IMG/VR virus record: IMGVR_UViG_2923339551_000004
DNA from: a virus
Lineage: Duplodnaviria; Heunggongvirae; Uroviricota; Caudoviricetes
Strand: one strand, 5' to 3'
DNA length: 60,308 nt
Of the stretch, positions 13,832-38,052 are shown piece after piece (position 1 is the first letter of the stretch; every line of letters starts with the position of its first letter). Made by a program: the position numbers and the translations under genes. The notes beneath the pieces are model-generated. The model made no database searches and was not told where the DNA came from. It saw only the letters and a program-made list of their open reading frames with translations.

Positions 13832-16389
13832 CGTCCACCTCCGGAGAACAGGCCACCATCACGCATCTGTGTCTGAATTTCATCACGGGCACCCTTGCGG
13901 GCCATGTCATACACTGCCTTCATCATCTGTGGACCTGGCAGACCATTCGTACCGTCGTTCTGAATCACCACGTGATTGTTCTGATTAAAATTAATGCCTT
14001 CAGCCCGCCGCATCTGCGCCGGACTTCCGGCACCGCCCACATAACCACCTTCCGCATAGCCCCGCATCAGGCGGTACAGGTTGCCGACACCAATCCGGCT
14101 GGTTGCCTCCTTCGTGAAGACAAATTCACCACGGTGAACAATCCCCGCTGGCTCATATTTGCCGCCGGTTCCCGTAAATCCCCCGGTCGCAAAATGGAAT
14201 TTCGCCGCAGCTGCCTGAATGGCTGTACCGCCTGACGCGGATGCGCCGCCACCAACAGCCCCGCCAATGGCGCTGCCGATACTCCCGACAATCCCCACCA
14301 TTGCCTGCTTAAGCAGAATTTCTGTCATCATGGACAGCACGGAACGGGTGAAGCTGCGCCAGTTCTGCTCACTGCCGGTCAGCATCGCCGCCATATTCTG
14401 TGCAATACCATCAAAGGTCTGCGTGGCAGCACTTTTAACCTGCGACATACTGTCCGTGGCGCTCTCTTCCCACTCACTCCAGCCGGACTTCAGGCCTGCC
14501 ATCCAGCTCCCGCGAAGCTGGTCTTCAGCCGCCCAGGTCTTTTTCTGCTCTGACATGACGTTATTCAGCGCCAGCGGATTATCGCCATACTGTTCCTTCA
14601 GGCGCTGTTCCGTGGCTTCCCGTTCTGCCTGCCGGTCAGTCAGCCCCCGGCTTTTCGCATCAATGGCGGCCCGTTTTGCCCGTTGCTGCTGTGCGAATTT
14701 ATCCGCCTGCTGCGCCAGCGCGTTCAGGCGCTCCTGATACGTAACCTTGTCGCCAAGTGCAGCCAGCTGGCGTTTGTACTCCAGCGTCTCATCTTTATGC
14801 GCCAGCAGGGATTTCTCCTGTGCAGACAGCTGGCGACGTTGCGCCGCCTCCTCCAGTACCGCGAACTGACTCTCCGCCTTCCACAAATCCCGGCGCTGCT
14901 GGCTGATTTTCTCATTTGCTCCGGCATGCCTCTCCAGCGTCCGGAGTTCAGCCTGAAGCGTCAGCAGGGCAGCATGAGCACTGTCTTCCTGACGATCGCC
15001 CGCAGACACCTTCACGCCGGACTGTTTCGGCTTTTTCAGCGTCGCTTCATAGTCCTTTTTCGCCGCCGCCATCAGCGTGTTGTAATCTGCCTGCAGAATT
15101 TTCCCGTCCTTCAGTGCCTTGTTCAGTTCTTCCTGACGGGCGGTATATTTCTCCAGCGGCGTCTGCAGCCGTTCGTAAGCCTTCTGCGCCTCTTCGGTAT
15201 ATTTCAGCCGTGACGCTTCAGTATCGCTCTGCTGCTGCGCATTTGTGTCCTGTTGACTCTGCTGTTCAGCCTTCTTTCTCGCGGCTTCAAGCGCAAGACG
15301 GGCCTTTTCACGATCATCCCAGTAACGCGCCCGCGCTTCATCGTTAACAAAATAATCATCCTTGCGCAGACTCCAGATGTCGTCCGCTTTCTTAAACGCA
15401 GCCTCTGCCTTAATCAGCATCTCCTGCGCGGTATCAGGACGACCAATATCCAGCACCGCATCCCACATGGATTTGAATGCCCGCGCTGTCCTGTCTGCCC
15501 AGGTCTCCAGCGTACCCATGTTCTCTTTCAGGCGGCGGGTCTGGTCATCAAACCCTTTCGTCGCGGCCTCGTTCGCCGCCTGCAATGCCCCGGCTTCATC
15601 GCCGGAACGCTGCAACTGAGCAACATACGCAATCTGCTCCGCCGTCACGTTATGGAACTGGCGTGCCATCGCCGTCAACCCCGACGTCGGGTCTGTGGTC
15701 AGCTTCCCGAAGGCTTCAGCGACCTTGTCCACCTCCACACCGGATGCAGAGGAGAAACGCGCCACACTCTGGCTGATGGACGCAATCTGAGCCTCACCGC
15801 TTACTCCCGCCTTAACCAGTGCGCTGAGTGACTCGCTGGTCTGGTTAAACGTCAGCCCTGCCACCTGCCCGGCTCTGGACAGGACCAGCATGCGATCTGC
15901 CGTCAGACCCGACTGATTGCCGGAAAGGACCAGCGTTTTGTTGAAATCGGACAGGGTTGAGTTGCCCTGATACCAGGCATACGCCAGCGCACCGGTCGCC
16001 ACCGCCAGCGAGGTGGCCCCCACCATCGGCAGGTTGATCGCACCGGCAAGCCCCCTGAACATGGGGATCATCCCGCCGAAGGAGTCCTTAACCTGCCCCC
16101 CCTGTTGCAGCAGGATCAGCCACGGACTTTGCCCGCCTGCAAGCTGCGTGGCCACGTCGGTGAACTGTGCAGGCAGCATACGCATGGCGGCTTTATACTG
16201 TCCGACGGAAATCCCCGCTTTCTGTGCAGCCAGCGCCTGCCGGTTCATTGACTGTTCAACGACTGCCGCTGTTTTTTTCGCATCACTTTCCGTACCGGAA
16301 AAATGACGCCTGACTCTGGCCATCTGCTCGTCAAATCTGGCCGCATCCAGACTTAAATCAACGACCAGATCGCCTACCGGTTCAGCCAT
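13828..16389 (-). CDS. H: tail tape measure protein H
   Basis: 853 aa, lambda H homolog. Confidence 0.95.
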   Translation of the reverse strand: MAEPVGDLVVDLSLDAARFDEQMARVRRHFSGTESDAKKTAAVVEQSMNRQALAAQKAGISVGQYKAAMRMLPAQFTDVATQLAGGQSPWLILLQQGGQVKDSFGGMIPMFRGLAGAINLPMVGATSLAVATGALAYAWYQGNSTLSDFNKTLVLSGNQSGLTADRMLVLSRAGQVAGLTFNQTSESLSALVKAGVSGEAQIASISQSVARFSSASGVEVDKVAEAFGKLTTDPTSGLTAMARQFHNVTAEQIAYVAQLQRSGDEAGALQAANEAATKGFDDQTRRLKENMGTLETWADRTARAFKSMWDAVLDIGRPDTAQEMLIKAEAAFKKADDIWSLRKDDYFVNDEARARYWDDREKARLALEAARKKAEQQSQQDTNAQQQSDTEASRLKYTEEAQKAYERLQTPLEKYTARQEELNKALKDGKILQADYNTLMAAAKKDYEATLKKPKQSGVKVSAGDRQEDSAHAALLTLQAELRTLERHAGANEKISQQRRDLWKAESQFAVLEEAAQRRQLSAQEKSLLAHKDETLEYKRQLAALGDKVTYQERLNALAQQADKFAQQQRAKRAAIDAKSRGLTDRQAEREATEQRLKEQYGDNPLALNNVMSEQKKTWAAEDQLRGSWMAGLKSGWSEWEESATDSMSQVKSAATQTFDGIAQNMAAMLTGSEQNWRSFTRSVLSMMTEILLKQAMVGIVGSIGSAIGGAVGGGASASGGTAIQAAAAKFHFATGGFTGTGGKYEPAGIVHRGEFVFTKEATSRIGVGNLYRLMRGYAEGGYVGGAGSPAQMRRAEGINFNQNNHVVIQNDGTNGLPGPQMMKAVYDMARKGARDEIQTQMRDGGLFSGGGR

Positions 16390-19767: not shown

Positions 19768-20557
19768 TTACGCCAGTTGTACGGACACGAACTCATCAGG
19801 GTCAGCCAGCAGCATCAGCGGTGCTGACTGAATCATGGTGAACTCACGCGCCGGATCGCCGGTGGTCACCCAGTTTTTCGGGTAACGGGCAGAGGCGTTA
19901 ATGCCTTCGCGCTGTGCGTCCGCATCCTGAATGCAGCCATAGGTGCGCAGACCGCGTGCATGAGTGTTACCCAGCACCATCGTGTTGTCCGGCAGGAAGT
20001 TCTTTTTGACGCCGTTTTCCACGTACTGTCCGGAATACACGACGATGGCCACATCGCCATACATCCCCTTATAGGACACCGCTTTACCCAGGTCTTTCAC
20101 CGCTGTCTCCAGCTCGGAATGAGAGCCGCGACGGGTATCCAGCTTCTCCTTGACGGCGTTGAAGGAACGGAACAGCGCCCAGCCTTTCGGATCAAACACG
20201 ATGATATTCACCACGCCGCTGGCGTTCAGCGCGTAGGCTTCGATATCGTCGGTCGGGTCATACGTGGACTTGTCACGCTTGCTCCACTCCGTGCCGCCGG
20301 ACTGCGTGATGTTGTTCGCCGCACTGCGGCCCATATCCACCTCAACCGGATCGAAGGCTTCACCGGTCATGGTGTATTTGCCCTTGAGCACGGCAGAAAC
20401 TGCCTGCATCTCTTCGACCTGAGCAATGGCCAGCTCTTCGTCACGCATGTTCTGCAGGATGATGCGACGGCGGCGGTAAGCCGGGTCCGCCAGATTCTGC
20501 GGATCTTCATCCGGCAGGCGACGCAGGGTCATCTGCGGATTCACTTCATGCTTGGGT
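19768..20557 (-). pseudogene. E: major capsid protein E, C-terminal fragment (codons ~83 to end) separated from its 5' part by the satellite insertion
   Basis: Translation ...PKHEVNPQMTLRRLPDEDPQNLADPAYRRRR... to ...EFVSVQLA matches lambda E from residue ~80; in-frame stop immediately upstream at the junction. Confidence 0.9.
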
Positions 20558-20712
20558 TACATGAGTCAATCCCGAAAGAACTATTTGATTTCACTTAGCT
20601 TTGTGGTTTATATATCTACGCAACTCCTATCACTGCAATACTTTCTGCAATACAGATATGTGTAGTGAGGACTTGTCTAAAAACCATATTCACGAAGAAA
20701 AAGGATGACACG

Positions 20713-21876
20713 ATGCAACCAGAAGATTATGAAGAAAAGCAATACGAGGATGAGCCAGAATCCTATCCAATTGATGAGTTTCAACTTACTACTACGCCCA
20801 ATGATTTTAATATAATCACAATTATAAGTTTTATTAAATCAAAAGTTTTTAAAATCCCTAACTTTCAAAGGCATTATGTTTGGGATATCAAACGAGCATC
20901 AAAACTCATTGAATCTCTTTTAATAGGCCTTCCTATACCTCAAATATTTTTATATGAACAAGATAAAAATGAATTTTTAGTGATAGATGGTCAGCAGAGA
21001 TTAATGACCCTTTATTACTTTGTAAATGGTGTATTCCCTAGAAAAGAGAAACGTTCTGAACTGAGAAAAATCTTTGAAGATAATGGAAACATTCCAGAAA
21101 ACATTCTTCACAATGATGAATACTTCACAAAGTTCAACCTAAAACTTGATGGTCTATCAGACACCCAAAAAAACAAGTTTAATGGGAAAAACTATGAAAC
21201 ATTAAACGAATTTCAAACCACTTTAAATCTGGCAACCATACGAAATATGGTAATCAAACCGGTTGCACAAGATTCGGAAGATGGTGCAATGTTTGAAATA
21301 TTTAACCGCCTAAATAGTGGGGGAATGAACCTTTCTCCTCAAGAAATTCGTATGAGTTTATATCACTCAGACTTTCTTTCAAATCTTGTTTCATTGAATG
21401 AAAACAAGACATGGAGAAAAATTCTTTCAAAAAATGTTGTTGACATGCGATTGAGTGATATTGAAGCGATATTGCGCACATTTGCTATGTCCCTTTTTAC
21501 ATCTCAATACAAAAGCTCAGTTAGCGGTTTTTTGAACAATTTCTCAAATTATGCAAAAAACTACGACACTAAAGACATAATTTTATTTAGTAATATATGG
21601 AATGAATTTATGGATAGTGTTGATGGAATTGATGAAATCAATTTCAGAACTGGTGGGAATCGTATGAGTATAACTTTATTTGAGTCAATTTTTTATGCTG
21701 CAACTTATGACTCATTTAAAGATAAAGATCTAAAAATAAGACAAGTGACGGTGAATTACATCGATAAGCTTAAAAATGATCCTGAATTTCTGACATTTAG
21801 TACTGATAAAACAACAAGAAGAGAGCATGTAATTGGACGTCTAGAACGTGCAAGAACAATTTTGGAGGGAATGTAA
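20713..21876 (+). CDS. DUF262 (ParB-like nuclease/NTPase fold, GmrSD N-terminal-domain-like) protein
   Basis: Motif FLVIDGQQRLMTLYYF (DGQQR signature of DUF262); AT-rich; start at ATG 20713 with RBS aaggatga (track ORF begins 20665). Confidence 0.7.
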   Translation: MQPEDYEEKQYEDEPESYPIDEFQLTTTPNDFNIITIISFIKSKVFKIPNFQRHYVWDIKRASKLIESLLIGLPIPQIFLYEQDKNEFLVIDGQQRLMTLYYFVNGVFPRKEKRSELRKIFEDNGNIPENILHNDEYFTKFNLKLDGLSDTQKNKFNGKNYETLNEFQTTLNLATIRNMVIKPVAQDSEDGAMFEIFNRLNSGGMNLSPQEIRMSLYHSDFLSNLVSLNENKTWRKILSKNVVDMRLSDIEAILRTFAMSLFTSQYKSSVSGFLNNFSNYAKNYDTKDIILFSNIWNEFMDSVDGIDEINFRTGGNRMSITLFESIFYAATYDSFKDKDLKIRQVTVNYIDKLKNDPEFLTFSTDKTTRREHVIGRLERARTILEGM

Positions 21877-21880
21877 AATA

Positions 21881-22429
21881 ATGGAGGATATGGGATATAC
21901 TTCTATTGAAAGTATGTTTAATAACTATAAGTGTTATTATGATTTTCTTCTAACTCATAATGAGATTAGTTTTGCTAATGATTACAAATCACAATTTTCA
22001 AAAGTAATGCTATTAGCATGTGCTAGCTATTTTGAAACTTTAGTTGTAACTAAGATACATTGTATGCTTAACCCAAGCCAATGTAATCTTACACACGATT
22101 TTATCGATAATAAGGCCCTAACCAGGCAGTATCATACACTCTTTGATTGGAAAAAAAGGAATGCAAACCAGTTTTTTTCCTTTTTTGGCCCAAAATTTAA
22201 AGAGTTTATGATTGAGAAGGTAAAATCAAGCACAGAGTTGACCAAGTCTATCTCTGATTTTATGGAAATCGGAGAGCTAAGAAATAAATTAGCACATAAT
22301 AATTATGCTACTTTTGTATTAGAAAGCACAGCTGAAGAGATTTATAATAAATTTTTAAATGCACATTCATTTGTCTCTCAACTAGATACGTTCAGTACAC
22401 AGTTTAGAGAGCAAATTGGTGAACAGTAA
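21881..22429 (+). CDS. hypothetical protein, possible HEPN-like partner of the DUF262 gene
   Basis: Start ATG 21881 preceded by ggaggga, 5 nt after the DUF262 stop; C-terminal motif ELRNKLAHNNY fits the Rx4H HEPN pattern; motif-level evidence only. Confidence 0.45.
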   Translation: MEDMGYTSIESMFNNYKCYYDFLLTHNEISFANDYKSQFSKVMLLACASYFETLVVTKIHCMLNPSQCNLTHDFIDNKALTRQYHTLFDWKKRNANQFFSFFGPKFKEFMIEKVKSSTELTKSISDFMEIGELRNKLAHNNYATFVLESTAEEIYNKFLNAHSFVSQLDTFSTQFREQIGEQ

Positions 22430-22466: not shown

Positions 22467-22493
22467 AAAAGCGGTCGCGTGACCGCTTTTTTC
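22467..22493. terminator. bidirectional intrinsic terminator between convergent genes
   Basis: aaaagcggtcgcgtgaccgctttttt: hairpin flanked by an A-run and a T-run. Confidence 0.7.
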
Positions 22494-22687
22494 TATTTAT
22501 CATTGCTATTTTCCTTTATTATTTCAGCAATTGACATAACTAAGGCGTCTGCTTTATTTCTAGTCCTATCAAACATATCTCTAATTACATCAATATAATA
22601 ATGTTCCTCAAAAATATTTACGTATGACAAAAGTATTGCACAACTCTTGCCCAAAATGTCAGCCAGTTGATCTTTGTTGACTTCCAT
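22493..22687 (-). CDS. small ORF with a Nu1-like N-terminus (first ~15 aa) fused to unrelated AT-rich sequence
   Basis: MEVNKDQLADILGKS... versus helper Nu1 MEVNKKQLADIFGAS...; sits next to the satellite cos. Confidence 0.4.
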   Translation of the reverse strand: MEVNKDQLADILGKSCAILLSYVNIFEEHYYIDVIRDMFDRTRNKADALVMSIAEIIKENSNDK

Positions 22688-22699
22688 TGTTCATTCCAC

Positions 22700-22920
22700 G
22701 GACAAAAACAGAGAAAGGAAACGACAGAGGCCAAAATGCCCGTTTTCAGCGCCTGTCATTTCCTTTCTTTTCAGGGGGTATTTTAAATAAAAACATAAAG
22801 TTACGGCGAAGAAGAACGGAAATGCCTTAAACCGGAAAATTTCCATAAATAGAGAAAAACTGCGCGCCTGACGCCCCGTAGCCTGTCAGATCGCCGGAAA
22901 GGACCCGCCAGCCAGAGCGG
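22700..22920 (-). other. satellite cos region: lambda-like terminase-binding segment with a divergent cosN
   Basis: ~85-90% identity by eye to helper cos 38060..38290 over the terminase-binding segment; the cosN-equivalent 12-mer (22865..22876, cgcctgacgccc) differs from the helper (aggtcgccgccc) at 5 positions. Confidence 0.75.
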
Positions 22921-22932
22921 GCCCTAATTTCA

Positions 22933-23316
22933 TCAACCAATCAGCTTATAGCGACCATCCCGTGCATTGCGGCGTACACGCTCAATCTTGAGGCATAGCG
23001 CCGCATCTGGCTTTTTTGGGACAGGTACGCGGCAATATTCAGAAGCGCGAGGAATATTATTTATCCAGTCGATCACTTCACTTAAATACCAGGCCTTACG
23101 CCCTTCCGTAACCTGCACACGCTCCGGGAACTCTCCACTAGCCTCAAGGTTTAGCAGTGTACGCCGACTCAGGGTTGTAATTTCCATCACCTGATTCATA
23201 TCAACAAGGCGCTCGCTTAAACACATTTTGTCAGCGATAGCTTTTAATTCCTCTACAGCTGGATTCGGGTACATCATTTCGGCAATTGGCTTAAGGTCAT
23301 TGTAATCATTCTGCAT
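22933..23316 (-). CDS. AlpA-like HTH DNA-binding protein
   Basis: Central segment MEITTLSRRTLLNLEASGEFPERVQVTEGRKAWYLSEVIDWI resembles AlpA/Xis-type HTH; start uncertain. Confidence 0.55.
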   Translation of the reverse strand: MQNDYNDLKPIAEMMYPNPAVEELKAIADKMCLSERLVDMNQVMEITTLSRRTLLNLEASGEFPERVQVTEGRKAWYLSEVIDWINNIPRASEYCRVPVPKKPDAALCLKIERVRRNARDGRYKLIG

Positions 23317-23327: not shown

Positions 23328-23669
23328 TTACACACGAGCCAGCGGCTGAACAGAAATACCTGAGCCAACAAACGCGGCAACCTTTGCCGACAGTTCTCTT
23401 ACAGACTCAGGCCAGTTCAGAGCATCAACATTTAAAACACCTGTCTTATAAACCTGTGCCTGTGTTTTTTTCGCTGTGTCGATTTGTACAGCGGAAACAT
23501 AAACCGCTTTGCCTGCGCTCGTTCCATCCCATACCACTAGCGCACCAGTTGCATCTTCCTGCATCAGTGGCGTAAACGCAGGTATTACCCCTTTATTGGC
23601 TGAAAATATCCCCAGCGTAGTAACCAGTGCTTCAGTGCCAGACATGAGTTCAGTGTAATGAGTAGCCAT
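23328..23669 (-). CDS. head decoration protein D homolog (divergent), satellite-encoded
   Basis: 113 aa; recognisable similarity to lambda D (VVWDGTSAGKAV versus [13 protein letters not shown]), far more diverged than the helper D at 32164..32496. Confidence 0.7.
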   Translation of the reverse strand: MATHYTELMSGTEALVTTLGIFSANKGVIPAFTPLMQEDATGALVVWDGTSAGKAVYVSAVQIDTAKKTQAQVYKTGVLNVDALNWPESVRELSAKVAAFVGSGISVQPLARV

Positions 23670-23678
23670 TGCTCCCCC

Positions 23679-24719
23679 TTAGCCAATGCGAACGGTAACA
23701 AAACGATTGATGCGGGCCGGTATTGGCTGTGGTGCTGAATGTGTCTGCACATATTCAATAGCCGGATCACCAGGCACAATATAGTTTTTCGGTGCAAGTT
23801 CGGCTTTAGTCAGCCCCATTCGGATTAGCTCCGGATCCTGAATACCGCCATAGGCGACAATCCCCTGAAGAGCCGTATTGCCAAGCACCATCAAATCAGG
23901 ATCAAGGAAATGTTTTTCAGTTCCGTCCTCGTCGGTATAACGCCCGCTGTATACAACAATCGCAACATCGCCCATATACCCTTTAAAACTCACCGAATCA
24001 CCAAGGTCTTTAAGGGCCGTTTCCAGTTCGGAATTAGAACCACGACGGGTATCCAGAGCCTCTTTTATCGCTCTGAATGAACGGTATTTCTTCCATACAT
24101 TACCGCCCATAATGATGATATTAGTGACGCCCTCACTAAATTCTGCGTAGCTCTCAATATCATCATTTGGATCAAAAGTTTCTTTATCCTTACCTGACCA
24201 CTCAGCACCGCCAGACTGAGTGATGATATTTTGTGGTTTAATATTCCAGTCCAGCTCATAACGTTCAATACCATCGCCCTCAATGATATTTTTCCCCGTT
24301 GTGATTGCCTGAACGGCAAGCCATTCAATACGTGCACGAATAGCTTTAGCCTGATTTACAATCGCCTGTTTAACTTTAATATTACGCGCTCCAAAAGCAT
24401 TGTATTGCTCAGGTGATACACCAGCAGGGCGCACAGCTAACTTATTTGGATCAATGCTGCTTTTCGGCTTCATATAGCCTGGACGAATTGTTTTTGATTC
24501 GTACCCTTCGTCACGTGAAACTTTACTACCCACCATAGGAGAACAAAACGCTGCAATTGGGATATTTGGATCGTCGATTGTATCAAGAATAATATCGCGC
24601 GATTCAAACATTACCGAGCGAGTAAAAAACAAACTGGTAAACAACGCATTTAGTTGTTTTTGTACATCTACAGCATTAACCACCTGTACAAGCTGGGTAG
24701 GCGAATATAAATCAACCAT
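23679..24719 (-). CDS. major capsid protein E homolog (divergent), satellite-encoded
   Basis: About half the positions shared with lambda E over the C-terminal part (TRRGSNSELETALKDLG, GDVAIVVYSG); start at ATG 24719 with aagagg RBS (track ORF begins 24893). Confidence 0.8.
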   Translation of the reverse strand: MVDLYSPTQLVQVVNAVDVQKQLNALFTSLFFTRSVMFESRDIILDTIDDPNIPIAAFCSPMVGSKVSRDEGYESKTIRPGYMKPKSSIDPNKLAVRPAGVSPEQYNAFGARNIKVKQAIVNQAKAIRARIEWLAVQAITTGKNIIEGDGIERYELDWNIKPQNIITQSGGAEWSGKDKETFDPNDDIESYAEFSEGVTNIIIMGGNVWKKYRSFRAIKEALDTRRGSNSELETALKDLGDSVSFKGYMGDVAIVVYSGRYTDEDGTEKHFLDPDLMVLGNTALQGIVAYGGIQDPELIRMGLTKAELAPKNYIVPGDPAIEYVQTHSAPQPIPARINRFVTVRIG

Positions 24720-24936
24720 ACGCATCCTCTTTGCATTCATTAAAAATAATTGTGGATATATGCTATCACCGATATTTGTCATGCGAATACATGCAACCGA
24801 GTGCAATGTTGTATAAAGTTTTGGGATGACAACTTCAGCACGGATAATTAGTGTTAATATCTTCACTCCCTTTGGTCTGGATTTATGTAGCATGCCGGAA
24901 AATTTATTTTTTTCCGGCCTTTTTTATTGGCAATAT

Positions 24937-25386
24937 TTAAAGCGGAATATCATCTCCCCATTGCTCATTATCTCCCACTGGTGGATGGCTTCCTTGCTGA
25001 TCTGCCTGTTGTTTTGCTCTGTTCAGTGCGTCAGTAGCCTGCCCCTGTTGGCCTTTTTTGCCGCCCGGTCGCACCGATCGCGCACTGATTACGCTGTCTG
25101 CGATAACCTGCCAGCCCTGCCGCGTTTCACCGTTCTGTCCAGTCCACTGGCTCACCTGCATATTACCCGCCACGCTCAGGAGTTCGCCTTTGTGATGCTT
25201 TGCCAGCGTGTCGGCTTGTCTGCCAAACGCCAGCACAGATAACCACATCGTCGCCGTTCCGTCATCTGCCTGGCTGCATGGCAAAGATACCGCCATCCAT
25301 GCCAGTGTCATGGGTGTTCCCTTGCTGGTATGTTTTACCTGTGGGTCGTCCACCAGCCGCCCGTAAGCTGCTATTTGCGCCGTCAT
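24937..25386 (-). CDS. single-stranded DNA-binding protein-like (SSB-like)
   Basis: 149 aa; OB-fold-like N-terminus, Gly/Gln-rich tail and terminal DDIPL resembling the SSB C-terminal DDDIPF. Confidence 0.6.
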   Translation of the reverse strand: MTAQIAAYGRLVDDPQVKHTSKGTPMTLAWMAVSLPCSQADDGTATMWLSVLAFGRQADTLAKHHKGELLSVAGNMQVSQWTGQNGETRQGWQVIADSVISARSVRPGGKKGQQGQATDALNRAKQQADQQGSHPPVGDNEQWGDDIPL

Positions 25387-25685: not shown

Positions 25686-25918
25686 CCTTGTCTACCTTGT
25701 CTACCTGATTAGTTATCAGGCCAGTAATGGCGCGGGTTTCAGGGAGGTAGACAGCCCCAAATAGCTGTCTACCTCATCTCTACCCGTCTCCTTACCTGTC
25801 TACAAAAATGGGTAGATAAGGTAGATAACAGGTAGACAGTGAAAAATAGTTATCTACCTGCATTAATACATTGAAATAAAAGTATTTTATTTCAGTCAGG
25901 TAGACAAGGTAGATAACC
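25686..25918. repeat. iteron array, putative satellite replication origin
   Basis: At least 11 copies of GGTAGA(C/T)A / T(A/G)TCTACC in both orientations, irregularly spaced, immediately 3' of the primase/helicase gene. Confidence 0.75.
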
Positions 25919-25929: not shown

Positions 25930-27681
25930 TTATAAAAACGCATCGCAATCATCAGTAGTCGTTGCGTTGGTCTGCGTGACTCCCTTAACTTTTCGAGTAA
26001 TATATTCATATCCGTAAACTTTCGCCGCTGACCTCATAGCCTTTCCGAACTCATTCACGCTCAAACATTTCCCCTTTCCTGTATATGCCATGAAGGCCAT
26101 ATAGACACGGTAAAGGCTGTTTCTGGTCGTGTACTTCACGGTGTCACCACCACCGCCCATCATTAGCCCACGAGCTTCCTCCAGAAACTCCAGCGCCGCG
26201 CAAAGCTCAACAACCGGATCCGTTTGCTGCTTTATTGCCAGAGCTTCATCACCGTCACGCTGTTCCAGTAATAAAGCCCGTGCCTTTTCAGGGTCAGCAA
26301 AATTAGCCAGCAAGCGGCGGATAATTACGGGGATTTCTGCCGCTATCTTTTCCGGTAATTCCTTGTCTTTTTCGTCCTCCCTTACAATGTTGTCGAACCG
26401 GAAAATCACCCGACGGCGTGACACACCTCCGGCCCGTTCGGTAAAGATCATCGGGTCGTTATTGGTTGCCAGTACCACCGCCCTTATTATCGTCGTGAAT
26501 CGCTTCTCATATTTCGGGTTAATTTCAACGGGATCGCCTCCCGTGATTTTCTTGATGCCCGTGCCTTCCCCCGTATATTTCGGCTGATCGGCAAGGACGA
26601 TAAGACGACTCCCGACAACCTGCGCACGCCCTCCTGCATCATCGAGTGATGTCATCTCTGCGCTTACGGTGTTCTGTTTGCCAGCAAGCAGGGTGGCAAT
26701 ATGGGTAAATGTACTCTTACCGCTTCCCCCGTCTCCGGTGGCCTCAATGAACATCTGCCAGTCGTACCGGTTCGCCATAATCATGTACAGCGCGGCACAT
26801 ATACGCATCATCTTGCGCGGGTCTTTTCCGGCTGCGTGCTCAAGCCATTTATGAAAGTTTGGCGCGTTATCGCGGATGTTCTCCCCTGGTGCTGGTGGCG
26901 TGTACTCAATGCCGTTGTGCGTGGTGATCCAGTTCTCCGGCGTGTGCGGGGAAAATTCCCCCGTTTTCAGGTCAAGCGCACCATTGGCGAACGGCAGCAA
27001 ATCGCCGGACGGCTCGCCCATTGGTTCGGCAATAACTTTTAACGCTTCAACGGCGTTATTGATCACGCGTTTGCTGAAAGTGGCCCTGTGCTCTGAATAG
27101 ATCGCCACCATTTCGCGGCTCAGCTCCATTGTGCTGATCGGACACCATACCCCGCCGCGCCATACGTGAACGATTTCACTTTCCGGATGCACACAAACGC
27201 CATCAAAGCGCTCGGCAAGCAGCTGCGCGCGCTCACTGTCTGCCATCTGTGAAAGTTGCGCCTTTTGCTTCGTCGGAAGATTAAGCACCAGGCTTTCCCC
27301 ACGCTCGCATTCCTCTTTGAGTCGCGGCAACTGGTCGGATAAATCCACTGGGCTGGTGTCAGTAATCCCCGCGTATTCGTGTACGGTCTTCACTCCAGCC
27401 ACAGCCAGTAACGTAACAATCTGCGTCATGCTGTGCTCTGTGATATGTCCTGCGCGGTAAACACGCACACACTGACGATCTTCATCAATGATCCGGTAAT
27501 CGGTGATGTTTTTCAGTTGCTCATCAGCCAACACGACAGGCGGCACATCGTCGGCGGCAATATGTTTACCCGCCCATTCCTGCCACTCTTTCGCATGGCT
27601 CCACGCATCACTACCTGCAAAGATGATTATCTCTGTCAGTCTGTCGCGTGGCTGTTTTTTTAAGTTCGGTGCCAGTTTCAT
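25930..27681 (-). CDS. replication protein: primase/helicase (P4 alpha / D5-like SF3 helicase family)
   Basis: 583 aa; Walker A EATGDGGSGKSTF; sits next to the iterons. Confidence 0.75.
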   Translation of the reverse strand: MKLAPNLKKQPRDRLTEIIIFAGSDAWSHAKEWQEWAGKHIAADDVPPVVLADEQLKNITDYRIIDEDRQCVRVYRAGHITEHSMTQIVTLLAVAGVKTVHEYAGITDTSPVDLSDQLPRLKEECERGESLVLNLPTKQKAQLSQMADSERAQLLAERFDGVCVHPESEIVHVWRGGVWCPISTMELSREMVAIYSEHRATFSKRVINNAVEALKVIAEPMGEPSGDLLPFANGALDLKTGEFSPHTPENWITTHNGIEYTPPAPGENIRDNAPNFHKWLEHAAGKDPRKMMRICAALYMIMANRYDWQMFIEATGDGGSGKSTFTHIATLLAGKQNTVSAEMTSLDDAGGRAQVVGSRLIVLADQPKYTGEGTGIKKITGGDPVEINPKYEKRFTTIIRAVVLATNNDPMIFTERAGGVSRRRVIFRFDNIVREDEKDKELPEKIAAEIPVIIRRLLANFADPEKARALLLEQRDGDEALAIKQQTDPVVELCAALEFLEEARGLMMGGGGDTVKYTTRNSLYRVYMAFMAYTGKGKCLSVNEFGKAMRSAAKVYGYEYITRKVKGVTQTNATTTDDCDAFL

Positions 27682-27977
27682 TTTTTGCCCCTGAATGCGT
27701 TAATCATGCTTTTCATTTTCTGGATGTTTCCCCGCGCTTTTTCCCTGCTGATGGGCTTACTACGGGGTGCGGCATATACCAGGGAAAAATCACGCCGGAA
27801 CTGATAAACAGGCATCACGCAGTCATAGCTATACCCCTCACGACGGTAAGTGATGCGCCGTTCTGCCACGCCTTTAATCGTTACCGTGCCGCCGTATTTA
27901 TCGCGGTAAATATCGCCGTTCATAAATTCAGGCCGAGCGGGGCCGCTGGCAATAAAGCCAGAATTTTTCATTTCCAT
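27678..27977 (-). CDS. hypothetical protein (replication-operon small ORF)
   Basis: 99 aa; stop overlaps the primase start (27678..27681). Confidence 0.45.
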   Translation of the reverse strand: MEMKNSGFIASGPARPEFMNGDIYRDKYGGTVTIKGVAERRITYRREGYSYDCVMPVYQFRRDFSLVYAAPRSKPISREKARGNIQKMKSMINAFRGKK

Positions 27978-27994
27978 ATTATTTATTCCTCGAC

Positions 27995-28216
27995 TTAACT
28001 CGACTTATTTGATAGCAGGGCACTATTTATTGCGTCATTGAGTTTTTCTGCTGCTTCATCAATAAGTGACAACAGGCCATAAGCAATATTTGCATCTTCA
28101 TTGTCATTTATGCAATCAAGCCACATATTTAATATTGCTTTTGCTGAATTATTTAAAGTTAATGAACTTTCTGCACATGCTAACAATTTAAAAAAGACTT
28201 CCCGTTCTGTATTCAT
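27995..28216 (-). CDS. hypothetical protein
   Basis: 73 aa ORF, AT-rich. Confidence 0.35.
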   Translation of the reverse strand: MNTEREVFFKLLACAESSLTLNNSAKAILNMWLDCINDNEDANIAYGLLSLIDEAAEKLNDAINSALLSNKSS

Positions 28217-28408
28217 TTAATCCCCCACCAGCTTACTTTCTTCCTCAATCAAAAAACTAGCGACACTTCCCGAAAGACGCGCCAGTAGGCTCGCCAGTGC
28301 GGATATATCAGCATCTGTAATTTTGTTCGGGTATACCTCAAGAAGGCGGCAAATAATTTCTGTCTGGTGCGCACGTTCAGCGGCTTCGTGTAATGTGATT
28401 TCCTGCAT
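28217..28408 (-). CDS. hypothetical protein
   Basis: 63 aa ORF abutting neighbours. Confidence 0.35.
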   Translation of the reverse strand: MQEITLHEAAERAHQTEIICRLLEVYPNKITDADISALASLLARLSGSVASFLIEEESKLVGD

Positions 28409-28593
28409 TAATGCACCTCTTTTAATTCATACACTGCTGAAATAATGACTTGTGATAAGCCATATTCTGATGATTCGCTTCTCACCGCAGCAATAGCCGT
28501 CTGAACATTAACAGCCTTCACATTCTGAGCGATACCAATTGTGTGGCCTATTGGGTTAACAGCTCGGGCAAATACACGGAAGGTTTTAAGCAT
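28408..28593 (-). CDS. hypothetical protein
   Basis: 61 aa ORF abutting neighbours. Confidence 0.35.
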   Translation of the reverse strand: MLKTFRVFARAVNPIGHTIGIAQNVKAVNVQTAIAAVRSESSEYGLSQVIISAVYELKEVH

Positions 28594-28787
28594 GACTCAC
28601 TCCCTGGCGGATTTTTGCAGCGAATACAGCAACACAACCGGACGGGCAACGGCTACGCGCTTCGCGTTCCGTCCAGGCGGTTACGTGGATGATTTGAGAT
28701 TCTCCGGCACTCAGTGCCAGAAAACGCCACACAAAGGCCGTTTGTGTGTGTACAAGGTGTGGTATATGATTTACAGCAACCATAACG
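28587..28787 (-). CDS. hypothetical protein, first gene of the leftward satellite operon
   Basis: 66 aa from ATG 28787 with aggag RBS; below the 60-aa track cutoff as a separate ORF because it is embedded in the spurious 28586..29317 frame. Confidence 0.4.
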
Positions 28788-28973: not shown

Positions 28974-29279
28974 ATGGCAACGGCTAACAAAAACGCAAAA
29001 TCACAACTGACAACTGTCAGAGTCCCACTAGATGTTATGCAAGGGATGGAATCCGTTAAGCTGGACGGTGAAAGCAATGCCGGATTTATCGTAACCGCCA
29101 TGCGCGGTGAAATCGCCCGCCGCCAGGCAGAAGGAAGCGGAGAAAATCCCCTCGTGTCTTCACTGGATGCCTTAGCTAAGGTCGAACAAATCGGCATCAA
29201 GGCAGCGGAGGAAATCGGGCAACTCGTAGCCGTCGCTCGTGAAGAACTCCAGCGGCGTAAAGCCAAAGAATCTGAATAA
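28974..29279 (+). CDS. hypothetical protein, divergently transcribed from the replication operon (possible regulator)
   Basis: 101 aa; RBS aggag upstream; divergent arrangement typical of a satellite control region. Confidence 0.45.
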   Translation: MATANKNAKSQLTTVRVPLDVMQGMESVKLDGESNAGFIVTAMRGEIARRQAEGSGENPLVSSLDALAKVEQIGIKAAEEIGQLVAVAREELQRRKAKESE

Positions 29280-29629: not shown

Positions 29630-30166
29630 ATGAATCTAAAAAAAATAGCCACAAACACAAAAAACAAGATAACAGAAACATTTAATAAACTTATATTAGA
29701 GGCATCTAAAACCCCCACGCAAGATGAAATTAAAATACTTGAGAGAAGGAGTAAGAAGTTTAATTACTCCTTTTTCTCATACGCAGTCACAGGAGCTATA
29801 ATAGTTTTTTGCTCTCAACCATTAATTAAATACGCAAACCCAATACTTATTTTATTGAGTGGTCTGTTACTGTCTATCATCATTATCATTCTCAGAATGA
29901 TTTATATTTCACAAGCGAATGCATCATGGACAACCAAAAAACGCTCACATGTACTAGTTCATTTTCTTTCTGCATGTTTCATAGCATCAACATTGACGTT
30001 GCTATATCAGGCTTACGATAATAACATCACACACAAATTGTACTGTAAAAATATACAACAACTTATTGAAAAAAGGATAGAAACAGAAAAAAACATCAGC
30101 ATATTCAGTGGGATGCAATGCACCCCGGTATATGATTACTCTTTATTTGGATTTAATCTCTTATAA
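29630..30166 (+). CDS. AT-rich predicted membrane protein
   Basis: 178 aa; two strongly hydrophobic segments (AIIVFCSQPLI, ILILLSGLLLSIIIIILRMIYI); very low GC; aagggag RBS. Confidence 0.5.
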   Translation: MNLKKIATNTKNKITETFNKLILEASKTPTQDEIKILERRSKKFNYSFFSYAVTGAIIVFCSQPLIKYANPILILLSGLLLSIIIIILRMIYISQANASWTTKKRSHVLVHFLSACFIASTLTLLYQAYDNNITHKLYCKNIQQLIEKRIETEKNISIFSGMQCTPVYDYSLFGFNLL

Positions 30167-30235: not shown

Positions 30236-30472
30236 TTAAACTACCCACTCACCTCGAATCCATGCCTGCACTTCTGAAAGACGATATGCAACAGCAGTGG
30301 AACCAATCTTGATCCGCTTAGGAAATTTTCCTTCCTTCTCCAGCTTCCAGCGTGTGCTGTTCGCAAGAGTGGTTAGCTCCCGACATTCTTTCTCACGGAT
30401 CATTCGGTCAATGTTAGGAATGTACTCCAGACCCTTTTTATCAACAATTGCCATTTTTTTCATGTTAACCAA
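30236..30472 (-). CDS. alpA: AlpA-family transcriptional regulator / excisionase-like
   Basis: 78 aa, ...ELTTLANSTRWKLEKEGKFPKRIKIGSTAVAYRLSEVQAWI; directly downstream of the integrase. Confidence 0.7.
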   Translation of the reverse strand: MVNMKKMAIVDKKGLEYIPNIDRMIREKECRELTTLANSTRWKLEKEGKFPKRIKIGSTAVAYRLSEVQAWIRGEWVV

Positions 30473-31700
30473 CCTTTTGTTTGAGGATTGTCACTTTTGA
30501 ATCAGCACCTGCGATGCTATTGAGATATGTAGTCCAGAGTTCCAGAGCATCCAGTTTTTTAGCCATAAACTTACTCCGGTTGTAAACACCTGCCACGCCA
30601 GGTAGCGCATGGCCTAACAGTTGTTCTACTACATAAAATTCAACACCGAGATCACTTAGATGAGTAGATAGCGTTCTTCTAAGGTCGTGTAGTGACCATT
30701 GTTTTTCATGGCCCAAACGTTTACCGATTTTCCCCCCAATCTTGCTTACGCTTTCTCTAATTCGCAGACTTCCCAGCACATAACCAGTATGTTTTGTCTC
30801 TTCGTGAACATCCGTTACCCACTGTCGTAGAATTTCAGGTACTGGTCTGACGATTTCAACACCAGTTTTTGAGTGATCTTTTGGTACAGTCCAAACCCAA
30901 CTTTCGAGATCCCATTCGCTCCATTCTGATAATCGGGCTTCACTCATTCGACATCCAAATACTGTACAAAGCACAAACATTTTTCGCGTGTATTCAGACA
31001 TTAGTTTTAAATCAGGCTCGACAAAAATTGCCTTCCAGAGCTGGCCGAGTTCGGCTTCATCCAGAACCCGATCCCGCTTACCTGCAATCTGCCCCACATC
31101 ACTCATGCGCAAATCCTTTAAAGCATCACACGTCGCGTACTGGCGTACCCGACAAAAACGAAGAGCTAATTTAGTGTCAGAAAAAACATACGCCGCCATA
31201 ACTGGTGCATTACGTTTAATTCGGTCAAAACAGTCCAGCCATTCATATAGGTGAGTGTCATTTACGGGCAAATGACCGATATAGGGAAAGATATGCTTTC
31301 GAAATCTGCCAAGCGTTACAGCATGAGTTTTACGACGCACCTTACAGTAATTTTCATACCAGTAATTTAGTGCATCCTCCACTGTAACCGGCTTTAAGCG
31401 TTCTTCAGCCTGAATCTTAATCTGGATACGCGGATCACGTTTGTCAGCCAACCAACCACGGCACTCGTCGCGCTTTTCCCTTGCCTGTTTGAGTGACATA
31501 TCAGGATATTTACCCAACGTTAGCCAGACCGGAGCAGCCCGGCCACCTGCTAACCTGTAGAAGAAAACAAAGCTCACAGCCCCTTTAGTACTCACACGAA
31601 TAGAAAGCCCCTTTCCATCAGCAATGGTGATCTGCTTTTCTCTGGGTTTCCCCAGATATCCTTTAAGCGCTTTGTCGCTCAGTTTGTTCTCGCCAGCCAT
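30465..31700 (-). CDS. int: tyrosine recombinase / integrase (P4-type), satellite
   Basis: C-terminal catalytic region with HDLRRT and LLGH...Y motifs; start placed at MAGENKL (track ORF extends to 31751); adjacent to the att repeat. Confidence 0.85.
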   Translation of the reverse strand: MAGENKLSDKALKGYLGKPREKQITIADGKGLSIRVSTKGAVSFVFFYRLAGGRAAPVWLTLGKYPDMSLKQAREKRDECRGWLADKRDPRIQIKIQAEERLKPVTVEDALNYWYENYCKVRRKTHAVTLGRFRKHIFPYIGHLPVNDTHLYEWLDCFDRIKRNAPVMAAYVFSDTKLALRFCRVRQYATCDALKDLRMSDVGQIAGKRDRVLDEAELGQLWKAIFVEPDLKLMSEYTRKMFVLCTVFGCRMSEARLSEWSEWDLESWVWTVPKDHSKTGVEIVRPVPEILRQWVTDVHEETKHTGYVLGSLRIRESVSKIGGKIGKRLGHEKQWSLHDLRRTLSTHLSDLGVEFYVVEQLLGHALPGVAGVYNRSKFMAKKLDALELWTTYLNSIAGADSKVTILKQKVG

Positions 31701-31832: not shown

Positions 31833-32108
31833 CTACACGAAAGCCTCAGAAAGCCATGCTAAGTGCTTGGGTTTGACATATCCCGGCGTAAATTCAGAGG
31901 TGGAGCCGCCACGGGAACGGATAACCTCACCGGAAACAATCGGCGAAACGTACAGCGCCATGTTTACCAGTCCCGGAATTTGTGAGAGATAGACTTTCTC
32001 CGTAGTGAAGGGATAGCTCTCACGGAAAAAGAGACGCAGAAACAGCGGATCAAACTTAAATTTCTGCTCATTTGCCGCCAGCAGCTGGGCGGTTGTGTAC
32101 ATCGACAT
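31833..32108 (-). pseudogene. E: major capsid protein E, N-terminal fragment (82 aa) fused to 9 satellite-encoded codons
   Basis: MSMYTTAQLLAANEQKFKFDPLFLRLFF...GYVKPKH then LAWLSEAFV and stop; breakpoint at the KPKH codons. Confidence 0.9.
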
Positions 32109-32163: not shown

Positions 32164-32496
32164 TTAAACGATGCTGATTGCCGTTCCGGCAAACGCGGTC
32201 CGTTTTTTCGTCTCGTCGCTGGCAGCCTCCGGCCAGAGCACATCCTCATAACGGAACGTGCCGGACTTGTAGAACGTCAGCGTGGTGCTGGTCTGGTCAG
32301 CATCAACCGCCAGAATGCCAACGGCAGCACCGTCGGTGGTGCCATCCCACGCAACCAGCTTACGGGTGGAGGTATCCAGCATCAGCGGGGTCATTGCAGG
32401 CGCTTTCGCACTCAATCCGCCGGGCGCGGTTGCCGTATGTGCCGGGTCACTGTTGCCCAGCGGCTGGTAATGGGTAAAGGTTTCTTTGCTCGTCAT
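32164..32496 (-). CDS. D: head decoration protein D
   Basis: [27 protein letters not shown]..., near-identical to lambda D. Confidence 0.95.
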
Positions 32497-32505
32497 AAAC
32501 ATCCC

Positions 32506-33805
32506 TTACACTGGTGTGTTCAGCAAATCGTTAACGGCATCAGATGCCGGGTTACCTGCAGCCAGCGGTGCCGGTGCCCCCTGCATCAGACGATCCAGCG
32601 CAGTGTCACTGCGCGCCTGTGCACTCTGTGGTGCAGCTGCCAGAATGCGGCGGGCCGTTTCCACGGTCATACCGGGGGTTTCGGCCAGCACGCGTGCCTG
32701 TTCTTCGCGTCCGTGAGCCTCCTCACAGTTGAGGATCCCCATAATGCGACTGTTTTCTGCCGCAACCGCTGCGGTGATCTGCGCGTTCACGTCCGGCTGC
32801 GCCGCGCTGGCGTTCTCGCCCTCCGTCGCTTGCACCACGCCAGTAACGTCAGCCTGCGAAGCAGTGGCTGAAACAGTTGTTGATTGAGTCTCTTTGGTCA
32901 TTCGCCCTCCTGAGAGACGGGATTTACGTGCATCCAGTGCATCACGCATGACGGTGATCGCATCGGTACTGTTAACAAGTTCATCAGCCAGTCCGGCATC
33001 AATGGCCTCCTGACCGCTGTACACTGCAGCCTCGGTATCCAGCACAGCCTGCACGGACAGGCCGGTATATGCCGACACCTTCTGCGCAAACATCTGACGG
33101 GTTGCGTCCATCCGGGACTGCAGTGTCTCCCGGACGTCATCCGGAAGATGGCTGTAGGGATTGCCATCCACCTTATGGCTGCCGCTGTAAATCAGCGTGA
33201 TTTCCACACCCTGTTTCTCCAGGGCAGCACCGTAATTACTGTGAGCCATCATGACGCCGATGGAGCCTGTCCGGGCGGTCTGCGTGACCAGACGCCGGGA
33301 GGCGGCACTGGCAAGCAGCTGACCTGCACTGCAGTTCATGTCGTTGGCCAGCGCCCATACCGGTTTTATGTCACGCACACGGGCGATGATGTCAGCGCAG
33401 TCAAATGCCCCCGCCACCATTCCGCCTGGCGTGTCCATATCGAGCAGAATGCCGTCCACCATCGGGTCGCTGGCAGCCTGTTGCAGACGGGCGATAATGC
33501 CGTTGTAACCGGTCATCCCCGAGTACGGCTGCAGCGCCCGCGTCCGGCTGACCAGCGTGCCGGACACCGGCAGCACGGCGATGCCGTTCATGACCTGATA
33601 ACTGCGGGCCTGTCGTGGTCCGTCATCATCACCGGATAATGCCAGCGTCGCGAGTGCCTCCTGGGCAGTCAGGCTGTCGCCGGACACCGCATCCGTCAGG
33701 CGGCTGATCCCAAGCTGGCCTGCAAGCGCACAAAAGAAAACCCGCGCATAGGCGGGTTCAAGCATCAGCGGCTCATTAAAGGCCATGCTGGCAATATGCG
33801 GGAGA

Positions 33806-33815
<10 letters not shown>
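32506..33815 (-). CDS. C: capsid assembly protease C with nested scaffold Nu3
   Basis: Lambda C homolog (TAELRNLPHIASMAFNEPLMLEPAYARVFF); likely GTG start at 33815 with aggagg RBS, overlapping the B 3' end; the track ORF extends to 33960. Confidence 0.9.
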
Positions 33816-37506
<3,691 letters not shown>

Positions 37507-37532
<26 letters not shown>

Positions 37533-38052
37533 TCAGCAACCCCGGTATCAGTTCATCCAGCGCGGCTGCTTTGTTCATAGCTTTGATGATATCCCGTTTC
37601 AGGAAATCAACATGTCGGTTTTCCAGTTCCGGAAAACGCCGCTGCACCGACAGGGGGATCCCGTCGAGAATACTGGCAATTTCACCTGCGATCCGCGACA
37701 GCACGAAAGTACAGAATGCGGTTTCCACCACTTCAGCTGAGTCTCTGGCATTCTTCAGTTCCTGTGCGTCGGCCTGCGCACGCGTAAGTCGATGGCGTTC
37801 GTACTCAATAGTCCCTGGCTGCAGATCTGTCTCGCTGGCCTGCCGCAGTTCTTCAACTTCCCGGCGCAGCTTTTCGTTCTCAATTTCAGCATCCCTTTCG
37901 GCATACCATTTTATAACGGCGGCAGAGTCATAAAGCACCTCATTACCCTTGCCACCGCCTCGCAGAACGGGCATTCCCTGTTCCTGCCAGTTCTGAATGG
38001 TACGGATACTCGCACCGAAAATGTCAGCCAGCTGCTTTTTGTTGACTTCCAT
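37507..38052 (-). CDS. Nu1: terminase small subunit Nu1
   Basis: 181 aa, MEVNKKQLADIFGASIRTIQNWQEQGMPV. Confidence 0.95.

Follow-up and report, generated by a model that had tools for sequence, protein, structure and literature searches.

Why does a phage satellite that splits the major capsid gene of its helper carry a capsid gene and a decoration gene of its own? This question is raised by IMGVR_UViG_2923339551_000004, a Caudoviricetes record of IMG/VR with 60,308 nucleotides, which is referred to in its full length as the window. It contains a lambda-like prophage, whose late genes are on the minus strand. Gene E of this prophage harbours a satellite of roughly 11 kb, in which an E-like major capsid gene (23679..24719, minus strand) and a D-like head decoration gene (23328..23669, minus strand) are found. 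The original prediction, made from the sequence letters, interpreted the pair as a capsid-replacement strategy connected with the disruption of helper E, in which a variant shell protein possibly forms smaller capsids with the portal, scaffold and tails of the helper. According to the present analysis, the satellite is almost certainly a mosaic variant of the published helper-embedded phage-inducible chromosomal island (PICI) 11capE, with the E-like and D-like genes as its late-zone capsid and decoration module. Judged by its sequence relationships, the pair is a satellite-specific clade and not a recent copy of the helper genes. This lineage and the purifying selection acting on it, together with the fixed gene order, the linkage to AlpA2 and cos and a promoter-like region, make it likely that the pair has a real but conditionally redundant structural role. 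The present analysis adds the satellite-specific clade with its fixed reversed order, the purifying selection, the coupling to AlpA2 and cos and the conservation of the promoter-like region.

Identity of the satellite

The satellite unit has a length of 11,315 bp and lies between two 10-bp direct-repeat cores with the sequence AACCCAAGCA (20549-20558 and 31864-31873). It splits helper gene E after codon 82, between KPKH and EV, and joining the two halves at the repeat gives an uninterrupted E of 341 amino acids (aa), as expected from the predicted insertion of an element of about 11 kb into the helper capsid gene. The N-terminal fragment with codons 1-82 (31864..32108, minus strand) is annotated in RefSeq as 'major capsid protein, missing C-terminus' and the C-terminal fragment (19768..20558, minus strand) as 'major capsid protein, missing N-terminus'. 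On the minus strand, the identity block at 31864..31873 equals the published attL of the E_Phage_cap_E_80 group, and that at 20549..20558 equals the published attR.

The helper-embedded PICI 11capE was described by Tommasini, Mageeney & Williams 2023 as an 11 kb island in gene E of prophage 50icd in Escherichia coli NRG857c, with a 10-bp identity block, a capsid gene of its own and 201 relatives at the same site (PMC10111431). The att junctions of the window are identical base for base around the core to the published attL and attR of 11capE. The E-like protein is WP_000228111.1, which is identical in the 11capE of NRG857c with one synonymous difference between the genes, and the cargo protein with a HEPN domain has the same RefSeq accession in both elements (WP_000389900.1). 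AlpA and AlpA2 are 100 % and the integrase is 99.5 % identical to their counterparts in NRG857c, and the outer parts of the elements share 97.6-98.6 % nucleotide identity over about 8 kb outside the replication zone. The integration site, the gene order and the satellite cos region including its variant cosN are also the same.

In contrast, the unit length differs (11,315 bp here, 11,077 bp in 11capE), and the central 3.4 kb or so, covering small open reading frames (ORFs) and the primase gene, are without a nucleotide match. The primases are 47 % and the single-stranded DNA-binding proteins (SSB) 93 % identical. The exchanged replication zone extends over positions 25930-28600 of the window and 12435-15049 of the NRG857c locus; the adjacent small ORFs differ as well, and the flanks are about 98 % identical. 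Since the primases are only 47 % identical between such flanks, the window element is a mosaic with a swapped replication zone. Its integrase is 83-88 % identical to those at the same site in Cedecea and Kosakonia. The split helper E, the att block with its flanks and this integrase similarity, which was assessed by sequence identity, place the element in the E_Phage_cap_E_80 group.

The layout is that of a Gram-negative PICI. The size falls within about 10-20 kb, the integrase gene lies at one end with a co-oriented alpA next to it, and there is a primase gene with a candidate origin of iterons just downstream. Lysis genes, tail genes and a complete set of head and packaging genes are absent. 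Among the 18 coding sequences of the satellite, Pfam, PHROGs and the RefSeq annotation recognize a capsid gene, a decoration gene and a remnant of the small terminase gene terS as the only head and packaging content. The same three sources gave no portal, protease or terminase family match for any satellite ORF. The helper encodes Nu1, A, B (portal) and C (S49 peptidase), which agrees with the predicted dependence of the satellite on helper genes. The helper head and packaging genes that are absent from the satellite, namely D, C (S49 peptidase/scaffold), B, W, A and Nu1, occupy positions 32164..38052 on the minus strand, with D at 32164-32502 and Nu1 at 37507-38052.

The element and its capsid gene have therefore already been published (PMC10111431), and the novelty suggested by the original prediction is not given; no new kind of system is described here. 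A capsid homologue without a head module also has a precedent in Ccm of SaPIbov5 (PMC8569155). The search covered 5,426 complete E. coli genomes, of which 33 carry at least 80 % of the element sequence in one place. The junction of alpA, int, attL and the E fragment was found in 174 of these genomes, and the E/D allele group, annotated as intact, in 395.

The capsid and decoration genes

Both genes encode real homologues of lambda head proteins, as had been proposed. The E-like protein of 346 aa belongs to the lambda gpE family with the HK97 fold and matches PF03864 (Phage_cap_E) over its full length with 143 bits, compared to a curated cut-off of 22.9, and PHROG 29 'major head protein' with an E-value of 3e-89. 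The D-like protein of 113 aa belongs to the family of lambda gpD and phage 21 SHP and matches PF02924 with 56.2 bits (curated cut-off 29.1) and PHROG 49 'head decoration'; its matches in the PDB are SHP (1TD0, 3e-16) and gpD (1.5e-12).

Over the full length, the E-like protein shares 42 % of its residues with the reconstructed helper E (E = 1e-84); for the D-like protein and helper D, the identity amounts to 39 %. The identity to helper E is unevenly distributed, with 54 % for residues 161-346 and 31 % for residues 1-160, so the earlier statement that about half of the residues are conserved in the C-terminal part was accurate. By domain, identity reaches 60 % in the A-domain and about 30 % in the E-loop and the spine-helix/P-domain. 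Recent gene conversion from helper E was considered as a source of the higher C-terminal identity and rejected, as the sole match at the nucleotide level covers 136 nt at 73.5 %.

An AlphaFold model of the E-like protein (pLDDT 79) shows a full-length HK97 fold with a TM-score of 0.89 to 3BQW and of 0.83-0.86 to lambda gpE. Insertions and deletions relative to helper E do not exceed four residues, and the N-arm and the E-loop are therefore essentially of lambda length. This answers the comparison of arm and loop lengths that had been put forward as a check.

The genes are adjacent with a spacer of 9 nt and are transcribed from E-like to D-like. On the same strand, the helper has the order D to E, as in lambda. 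The original prediction was thus right about the adjacency of the genes, but not about their order, which is the reverse of that in lambda. Overall, the satellite proteins share the Pfam families, the fold and nearly the length of lambda gpE and gpD (346 vs 341 aa and 113 vs 110 aa), and the family of the D-like protein also includes phage 21 SHP. The differences are the low identities, the reversed order and the absence of Nu3, C, B, W, A and FI/FII from the satellite. The gpD-binding threefold sites of lambda are made up of the E-loop and the spine-helix/P-domain. The divergence from helper E in exactly these regions is a possible reason why a matching D-like gene always accompanies the E-like gene.

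Closer relatives of both proteins are found in EcCICFT073, a PICI in which c1499 is a homologue of capsid proteins and c1500 one of head decoration proteins (Fillol-Salom et al. 2018; PMC6092414). The E-like protein is 55 % identical to c1499 and the D-like protein 54 % to c1500, and both are thus closer to these proteins than to lambda E or D. The structure 3BQW is the crystal structure of c1499.

Distribution and selection

Among 50,697 phage records, the closest phage relative of the E-like protein is lambda E with 42 % identity. The identities of its homologues are bimodal, with one group at 50-99 %, which stands in satellite-type contexts wherever these were checked, and a second group of phage E proteins at 44 % or less. 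The satellite clade spans at least eight genera, and its members can be as little as 50-55 % identical to each other.

The relation between the integration site and the presence of the E-like gene was judged from 13 individually inspected contexts; an integrase-based scan of species-representative genomes contributed three loci only. The pair was found in E. coli PICIs adjoining thiM/rcnR and clpS/cspD, in the CFT073 PICI adjoining phoQ, in PICIs of Serratia and Lelliottia adjoining fis and in the capE-site satellites of Kosakonia and Cedecea. A helper-embedded PICI of Edwardsiella tarda (locus 765-12681) splits a lambda-type portal gene and carries both the E-like and the D-like gene, and its helper has its own D and E intact about 3 kb downstream. 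Thus, five integration sites beyond capE carry the pair while helper E stays intact. In every satellite inspected, the two genes are adjacent and in the order E then D.

Because the pair occurs at sites that leave helper E intact, it cannot be explained as compensation for an interrupted helper E, and the proposed connection between the capsid pair and the disruption of this gene is not supported. This also bears on the idea of a backup copy, which has been proposed for the capsid gene of 11capE (PMC10111431). Here, the E-like gene would be carried since integration destroys helper E, and it would stand in for this gene until excision. The idea is in line with the way in which 11capE was found, that is, in a search for islands carrying a homologue of the gene they interrupt (PMC10111431), and with the retention of E-like, D-like and AlpA2 by satellites at the capE site in E. 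coli, Kosakonia and Cedecea alike. However, besides the sites with an intact helper E, 21 of the 29 Gram-negative PICIs used as reference have capsid genes (PMC10111431), a decoration gene would be superfluous next to an intact helper D, and with members down to 50-55 % identity, the clade is far older than the capE integration specificity. A mere backup is therefore an improbable explanation.

The pair is under strong purifying selection. In pairwise comparisons, the ratio of non-synonymous to synonymous substitution rates (dN/dS) is 0.045-0.09 for the E-like gene, the lower value corresponding to 24 synonymous and 4 non-synonymous changes, and 0.06-0.15 for the D-like gene. The ORFs of both genes are intact in all eight loci compared, which removes the concern that they might be pseudogenes. 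The related assumption, that they are functionless and decaying remnants of a captured head module, would agree with the silent deletion in EcCICFT073 and with the neighbouring terS, which has decayed to 15 codons in the window element. It retains next to no probability, as it is effectively refuted by the selection analysis (dN/dS of 0.05-0.15), by intact ORFs in every copy inspected across at least eight genera and by the conservation of the Shine-Dalgarno sequences and the upstream region.

The nature of the conserved parts points in the same direction. Within the clade, the N-arm and the E-loop of the E-like protein are as conserved as in true phage E proteins, and these two elements matter only in the assembled lattice. 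The position of lambda W308 is occupied by W or Y in 36 of 36 PICI-clade members; according to the work on 7SJ5, this residue is reportedly needed for the self-assembly of lambda E. The two proteins hence appear to be intact, functional-looking homologues of lambda E and D.

A non-structural role would require that the fold is kept for recognition, with the proteins acting as a decoy or trigger for capsid-sensing immunity or as a regulator of late helper genes. The defence cargo of the satellite could be taken as a hint in this direction, as could the strong selection on a pair for which there has been no assembly phenotype so far. Nevertheless, such a role is very unlikely considering that the lattice-only N-arm and E-loop are conserved as in true capsid proteins, that the obligatory cement-protein partner and an occasional S49 protease/scaffold gene point to assembly and that neither protein has a match in PADLOC.

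Such a protease gene was found in the fis PICI of Lelliottia (10001-12752), in which the capsid and decoration genes are followed by a gene for an S49 peptidase of 447 aa resembling the lambda C protease/scaffold. Close to alpA, this PICI also has a Phage_HCP gene. The island looks transitional between PICIs that have capsid and decoration genes only and satellites with a full head module, and its gene arrangement fits a structural role for the pair.

Packaging and comparison with related satellites

The satellite has a cos region of 258 bp (22650..22907, minus strand) comprising cosN, a cosB-like segment and the first 15 Nu1-type codons, which is 88.8 % identical to positions 38015-38272 of the helper and identical to that of 11capE in NRG857c. 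Exact and near-exact searches for the lambda cosN came back empty, and a satellite without cos was considered; this was overturned by BLAST and an alignment, which showed the cos region with a variant cosN. The satellite cosN 12-mer GGGCGTCAGGCG (22865-22876, minus strand) differs at 5 of 12 positions from GGGCGGCGACCT of the resident helper (38230-38241, minus strand), whereas the cosQ and cosB-like flanks are about 89 % identical. The same mismatch between satellite and helper exists in NRG857c, and in Kosakonia a third variant, GGGCGGCAGACT, is common to satellite and helper.

The satellite variant of cosN was found in 57 viral contigs, 51 of which are of satellite type with AlpA2, D-like or E-like genes beside it. 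A full Nu1-like terS follows cosN in 17 of these 51. The E-like, D-like and AlpA2 genes and cos, in part with terS, thus form a stable block. In three of the 57 contigs, the variant stands at a Nu1 that is 99.4 % identical to that of the helper, in one case with gpA alongside. The assumption that another phage is the true helper, which the cosN mismatch had suggested, is weakened by these three contigs.

In the window element, the position of terS is taken by a small-terminase remnant, an ORF of 64 aa (22493..22687, minus strand) whose first 15 residues, MEVNKDQLADILGKS, are Nu1-derived, while the rest is unrelated; it has no Pfam match. Related PICIs have a full Nu1-like TerS at this position, which is either 36 % or about 71-73 % identical to helper Nu1.

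Packaging has a direct bearing on the size of the capsids. With a terminase of the lambda type, cleavage at cos requires an almost full head. Four satellite units amount to 45.3 kb or 93 % of the lambda length, which is inside the packaging range of lambda. When lambda served as the helper of EcCICFT073, the packaged DNA was of phage size throughout (PMC6092414). Deletion of c1499 or c1500 left the transfer by a resident prophage and the interference with lambda unchanged, and the authors reported no phenotype for c1499 (PMC6092414). The smaller capsids of the original prediction thus find no support in the closest relative that has been studied.

EcCICFT073 resembles the window element in the succession of int, alpA, pri, capsid and decoration gene, in the absence of portal, protease and large terminase subunit genes and in cos packaging by lambda-type helpers. 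It differs by its insertion in the chromosome instead of a prophage, by RppA, which retargets the helper TerS, by a lambda-type cosN and by the lack of AlpA2 after the decoration gene. Its interference was mapped to RppA acting on TerS (PMC6092414, PMC6739421). No homologue of RppA, RppB or RppC was found in the window element at the sequence level: a PDB sequence search with AlpA2 gave an AlpA-family structure only and no chain resembling RppC, and there is no other candidate among the ORFs of about 144-153 aa. An Rpp-type mechanism was therefore rejected at this level, and AlpA2 is unrelated to the gene that follows c1500.

A redirection of capsid size as in SaPIbov5 would mean that the E-like protein, alone or in the pentamers, forces small shells (T<7) for one or two genomes of 11.3 kb and excludes the helper. 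The model for this is Ccm, a capsid homologue that occupies the pentamers and leads to small heads with T=4 in place of prolate ones (Hawkins et al. 2021; PMC8569155). The Pasteurella PICI PmCI172, which makes small capsids, likewise has a capsid homologue (PMC6092414, PMC6893505), and the satellite of the window has less than a quarter of the length of its helper. SaPIbov5 and the window element have in common a major-capsid homologue without the rest of a head module, and cos packaging, but SaPIbov5 is Gram-positive, and its Ccm has neither a detectable sequence relationship nor a partner decoration protein. As far as size redirection is concerned, the presence of a capsid homologue, known from the genes, is all that is shared, and in the E. 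coli model PICI it was tested and not found. The phage-sized DNA in EcCICFT073, the interference that persisted without c1499, the fit of four units and the need of a lambda-type terminase for a nearly full head all oppose a small shell. Furthermore, the E-like protein has no insertion or deletion of more than four residues and no extra domain, and thus no structural novelty hinting at another geometry. Size redirection has accordingly been given a low probability.

Interference by the capsid proteins themselves is another explanation, in which the E-like or D-like protein or both co-assemble or compete with helper E and D and reduce the helper yield. Helper capsid assembly is a common target of satellites (PMC6893505), and with 60 % identity in the A-domain, which makes the intra-capsomer contacts, mixed capsomers are conceivable. 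However, deletion of c1499 or c1500 did not restore lambda plaque formation, the interference there being due to RppA (PMC6092414, PMC6739421), and a satellite that poisoned the shells on which it depends would harm itself unless shells of the E-like protein also work. Interference is consequently regarded as quite unlikely.

Capsid-forming PICIs (cf-PICIs) encode everything to make and fill capsids and take only tails from the helper (Alqurainy et al. 2023; 10.1101/2022.09.08.507074). They have in common with the window element that the satellite supplies its own capsid protein. The window element, in contrast, has a shell protein, a cement protein and cos, and not the complete head module of this group.

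Satellite P4 is about 11 kb long and has an integrase, a D5-type primase, Psu as a capsid-decorating protein and, towards one end, defence cargo, and it shares with the window element its size, the integrase, this type of primase, a satellite-encoded decorating protein and the terminal position of the defence cargo. Sid and Psu of P4 have no relationship to gpE and gpD, and the shell on which they act from the outside consists of helper protein. Neither Pfam nor PHROGs named a homologue of Sid, Psu or Delta among the satellite ORFs, which sets the element apart from P4-like satellites, and the helper is of the lambda type instead of the P2 type.

The late operon and its upstream region

A second AlpA-family gene, AlpA2 (22933..23316, minus strand), encodes a helix-turn-helix protein of 127 aa (PF05930, PHROG 2790) with a PDB match to the AlpA-family structure 8C3T. 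It starts 11 nt past the stop codon of the D-like gene, and a strong Shine-Dalgarno sequence precedes each of the E-like, D-like and AlpA2 genes. From this arrangement we infer a single operon with AlpA2 as the third gene. AlpA2 directly follows the D-like gene in PICIs of Kosakonia, Cedecea, Serratia and E. coli, just upstream of cos. As a regulator of the AlpA type, it may be a late activator, an excision factor or a cos-binding factor.

Upstream of the E-like gene lies a promoter-like region (24760..24819, minus strand). In it, the block ACTTTATAC is followed by three (A)TTGCAY repeats, spaced by about 11 nt, and by an extended -10 element. The last repeat overlaps a -35-like TTCGCA, which is followed by a spacer of 16 nt and the extended -10 sequence TGaTAGCAT. 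Two or three copies of (A)TTGCAY are conserved in six loci of four genera within otherwise diverged intergenic DNA, and the region is common to PICIs of Escherichia, Kosakonia, Cedecea and Serratia. It may be an activator-dependent promoter. In a subclade comprising CFT073, Edwardsiella and Lelliottia, an ORF of about 70 aa abuts the capsid gene in place of this region.

A perfect 9-bp hairpin, GCCGGAAAA-N7-TTTTCCGGC, is located right after the SSB stop codon (24894-24918). It is unlikely to stop minus-strand transcription into the E-like gene because its T-run is on the plus strand only.

Proposed role

In the reading preferred here, the E-like protein as shell subunit and the D-like protein as cement form a functional, matched pair that uses the portal and scaffold of the helper and becomes redundant when helper E is expressed. 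As a whole, that is, the identity of the element combined with this mechanism, this is the best explanation at hand, with a probability of roughly 0.5; the mechanism taken by itself is tentative, with odds a little short of even.

According to this mechanism, the two proteins would be the matched shell subunit and cement protein of an old satellite-specific lineage. The operon of E-like, D-like and AlpA2 would be transcribed, probably, from its own activator-dependent promoter. In addition, Q-antiterminated late transcription of the helper would read through the satellite and also cover the operon. Such a read-through has been proposed by Tommasini et al. (PMC10111431) and should be possible since the core genes of the satellite are co-oriented with the late operon of the helper. 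A scaffold domain is absent from the E-like protein, and the satellite encodes neither a portal nor a protease nor a terminase. The E-like protein would therefore have to assemble on the helper portal with the Nu3/C scaffold and protease, giving full-size heads of the lambda type, either as the only shell protein or together with helper E. At the threefold sites, which are formed by the regions of the E-like protein least similar to helper E, the D-like protein would act as cement. The helper terminase would then fill the heads from the satellite cos with about four concatemeric units (45.3 kb). In this way, the pair would provide a supply of shell protein that is independent of helper E and useful while helper E is split or limiting. 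Redundancy in the presence of an expressed intact helper E would explain the silent deletions in the model PICI.

Several points weigh against this mechanism. The deletions of c1499 and c1500 in EcCICFT073 were silent for both transfer and interference (PMC6092414), and redundancy as their cause is our own interpretation. The surfaces in contact with capsomers, scaffold and portal are the most diverged ones, with about 30 % identity, which makes the compatibility with helper Nu3, C and B uncertain. Although 11capE was reported to excise and replicate after induction, Tommasini et al. failed to detect virions of its helper (PMC10111431). The entry of the E-like and D-like proteins into particles is a prediction from the genes. 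The promoter, which is proposed at the level of a consensus from its conservation across genera, was not supported by a generic promoter scan, as this returned 29 sites compared to 25 ± 5 in shuffled sequence.

A more far-reaching version holds that E-like, D-like, AlpA2 and cos are an ancient minimal head module, with which the satellite builds a shell entirely of its own proteins on the portal, scaffold and tails of the helper, resulting in chimeric virions. This version is doubtful. If it were true, the virions would be distinct from those of classical PICIs, which consist of helper proteins throughout, and from those of cf-PICIs, whose heads are made by the satellite alone. An unexcised composite of satellite and helper could make heads while helper E is split, and satellite particles could escape defences or exclusion aimed at the capsid protein of the helper. 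If the pair does build the satellite shell, the element would stand between satellites that take over complete capsids and those that make their own, and it would offer a compact system for studying the contacts that let a foreign shell protein use the portal and scaffold of another virus. Capsid genes are the commonest late genes of Gram-negative PICIs and are paired with a decoration gene in all satellites inspected, yet no phenotype has been reported for them, and a literature search found no paper assigning a function to the capsid homologues of E. coli PICIs.

Further genes of the satellite

On the minus strand, the satellite has the order int, AlpA, small ORFs, primase, iterons, an ORF of 80 aa, SSB, E-like, D-like, AlpA2, cos and terminator. 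The backbone from int to AlpA2 lies on the late strand of the helper, whereas two small ORFs and two cargo genes are on the opposite strand. The GC content of the insert is below that of the flanking late genes.

The tyrosine integrase gene (30465..31700, minus strand; Pfam Arm-DNA-bind_3 and Phage_integrase) is located at the attL end with alpA beside it (30236..30472, minus strand; PF05930, 56 bits). The primase/helicase gene (25930..27681, minus strand) matches D5_N, DUF5906 and Pox_D5 in Pfam as well as PHROG 864. Downstream of it are iterons with direct and inverted repeats of the families D1 and D5 (25745..25917). As their position corresponds to the published location of PICI origins (PMC10111431), they are the probable replication origin of the satellite. 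The SSB gene (24937..25386, minus strand) matches PF00436.

The two plus-strand ORFs between alpA and the replication genes encode a predicted membrane protein of 178 aa without a family match (29630-30166) and a protein of the YlcI/YnfO family (28974-29279); an Icd-like ORF is close by.

Between the late operon and the defence cargo lies a bidirectional terminator-like hairpin (22467..22490) with a 10-bp stem and T-runs on both strands. A match of Rfam MicX to this hairpin reached 31 bits compared to a gathering score of 75 and was taken as chance. The cargo itself consists of a DUF262/GmrSD_N gene and a HEPN (RiboL-PSP) gene, both assigned by Pfam, on the plus strand (20665..22429) with a GC content of 31-37 %. 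In PADLOC, the DUF262/GmrSD_N gene matches NsnA (2.8e-59) and PD-T4-2_A (2.8e-38), and the HEPN gene has a weak match to PD-T4-2_B. The two genes are probably a two-gene anti-phage system. This cargo slot varies among copies of the satellite and holds a DUF2971 gene or IS insertions elsewhere.

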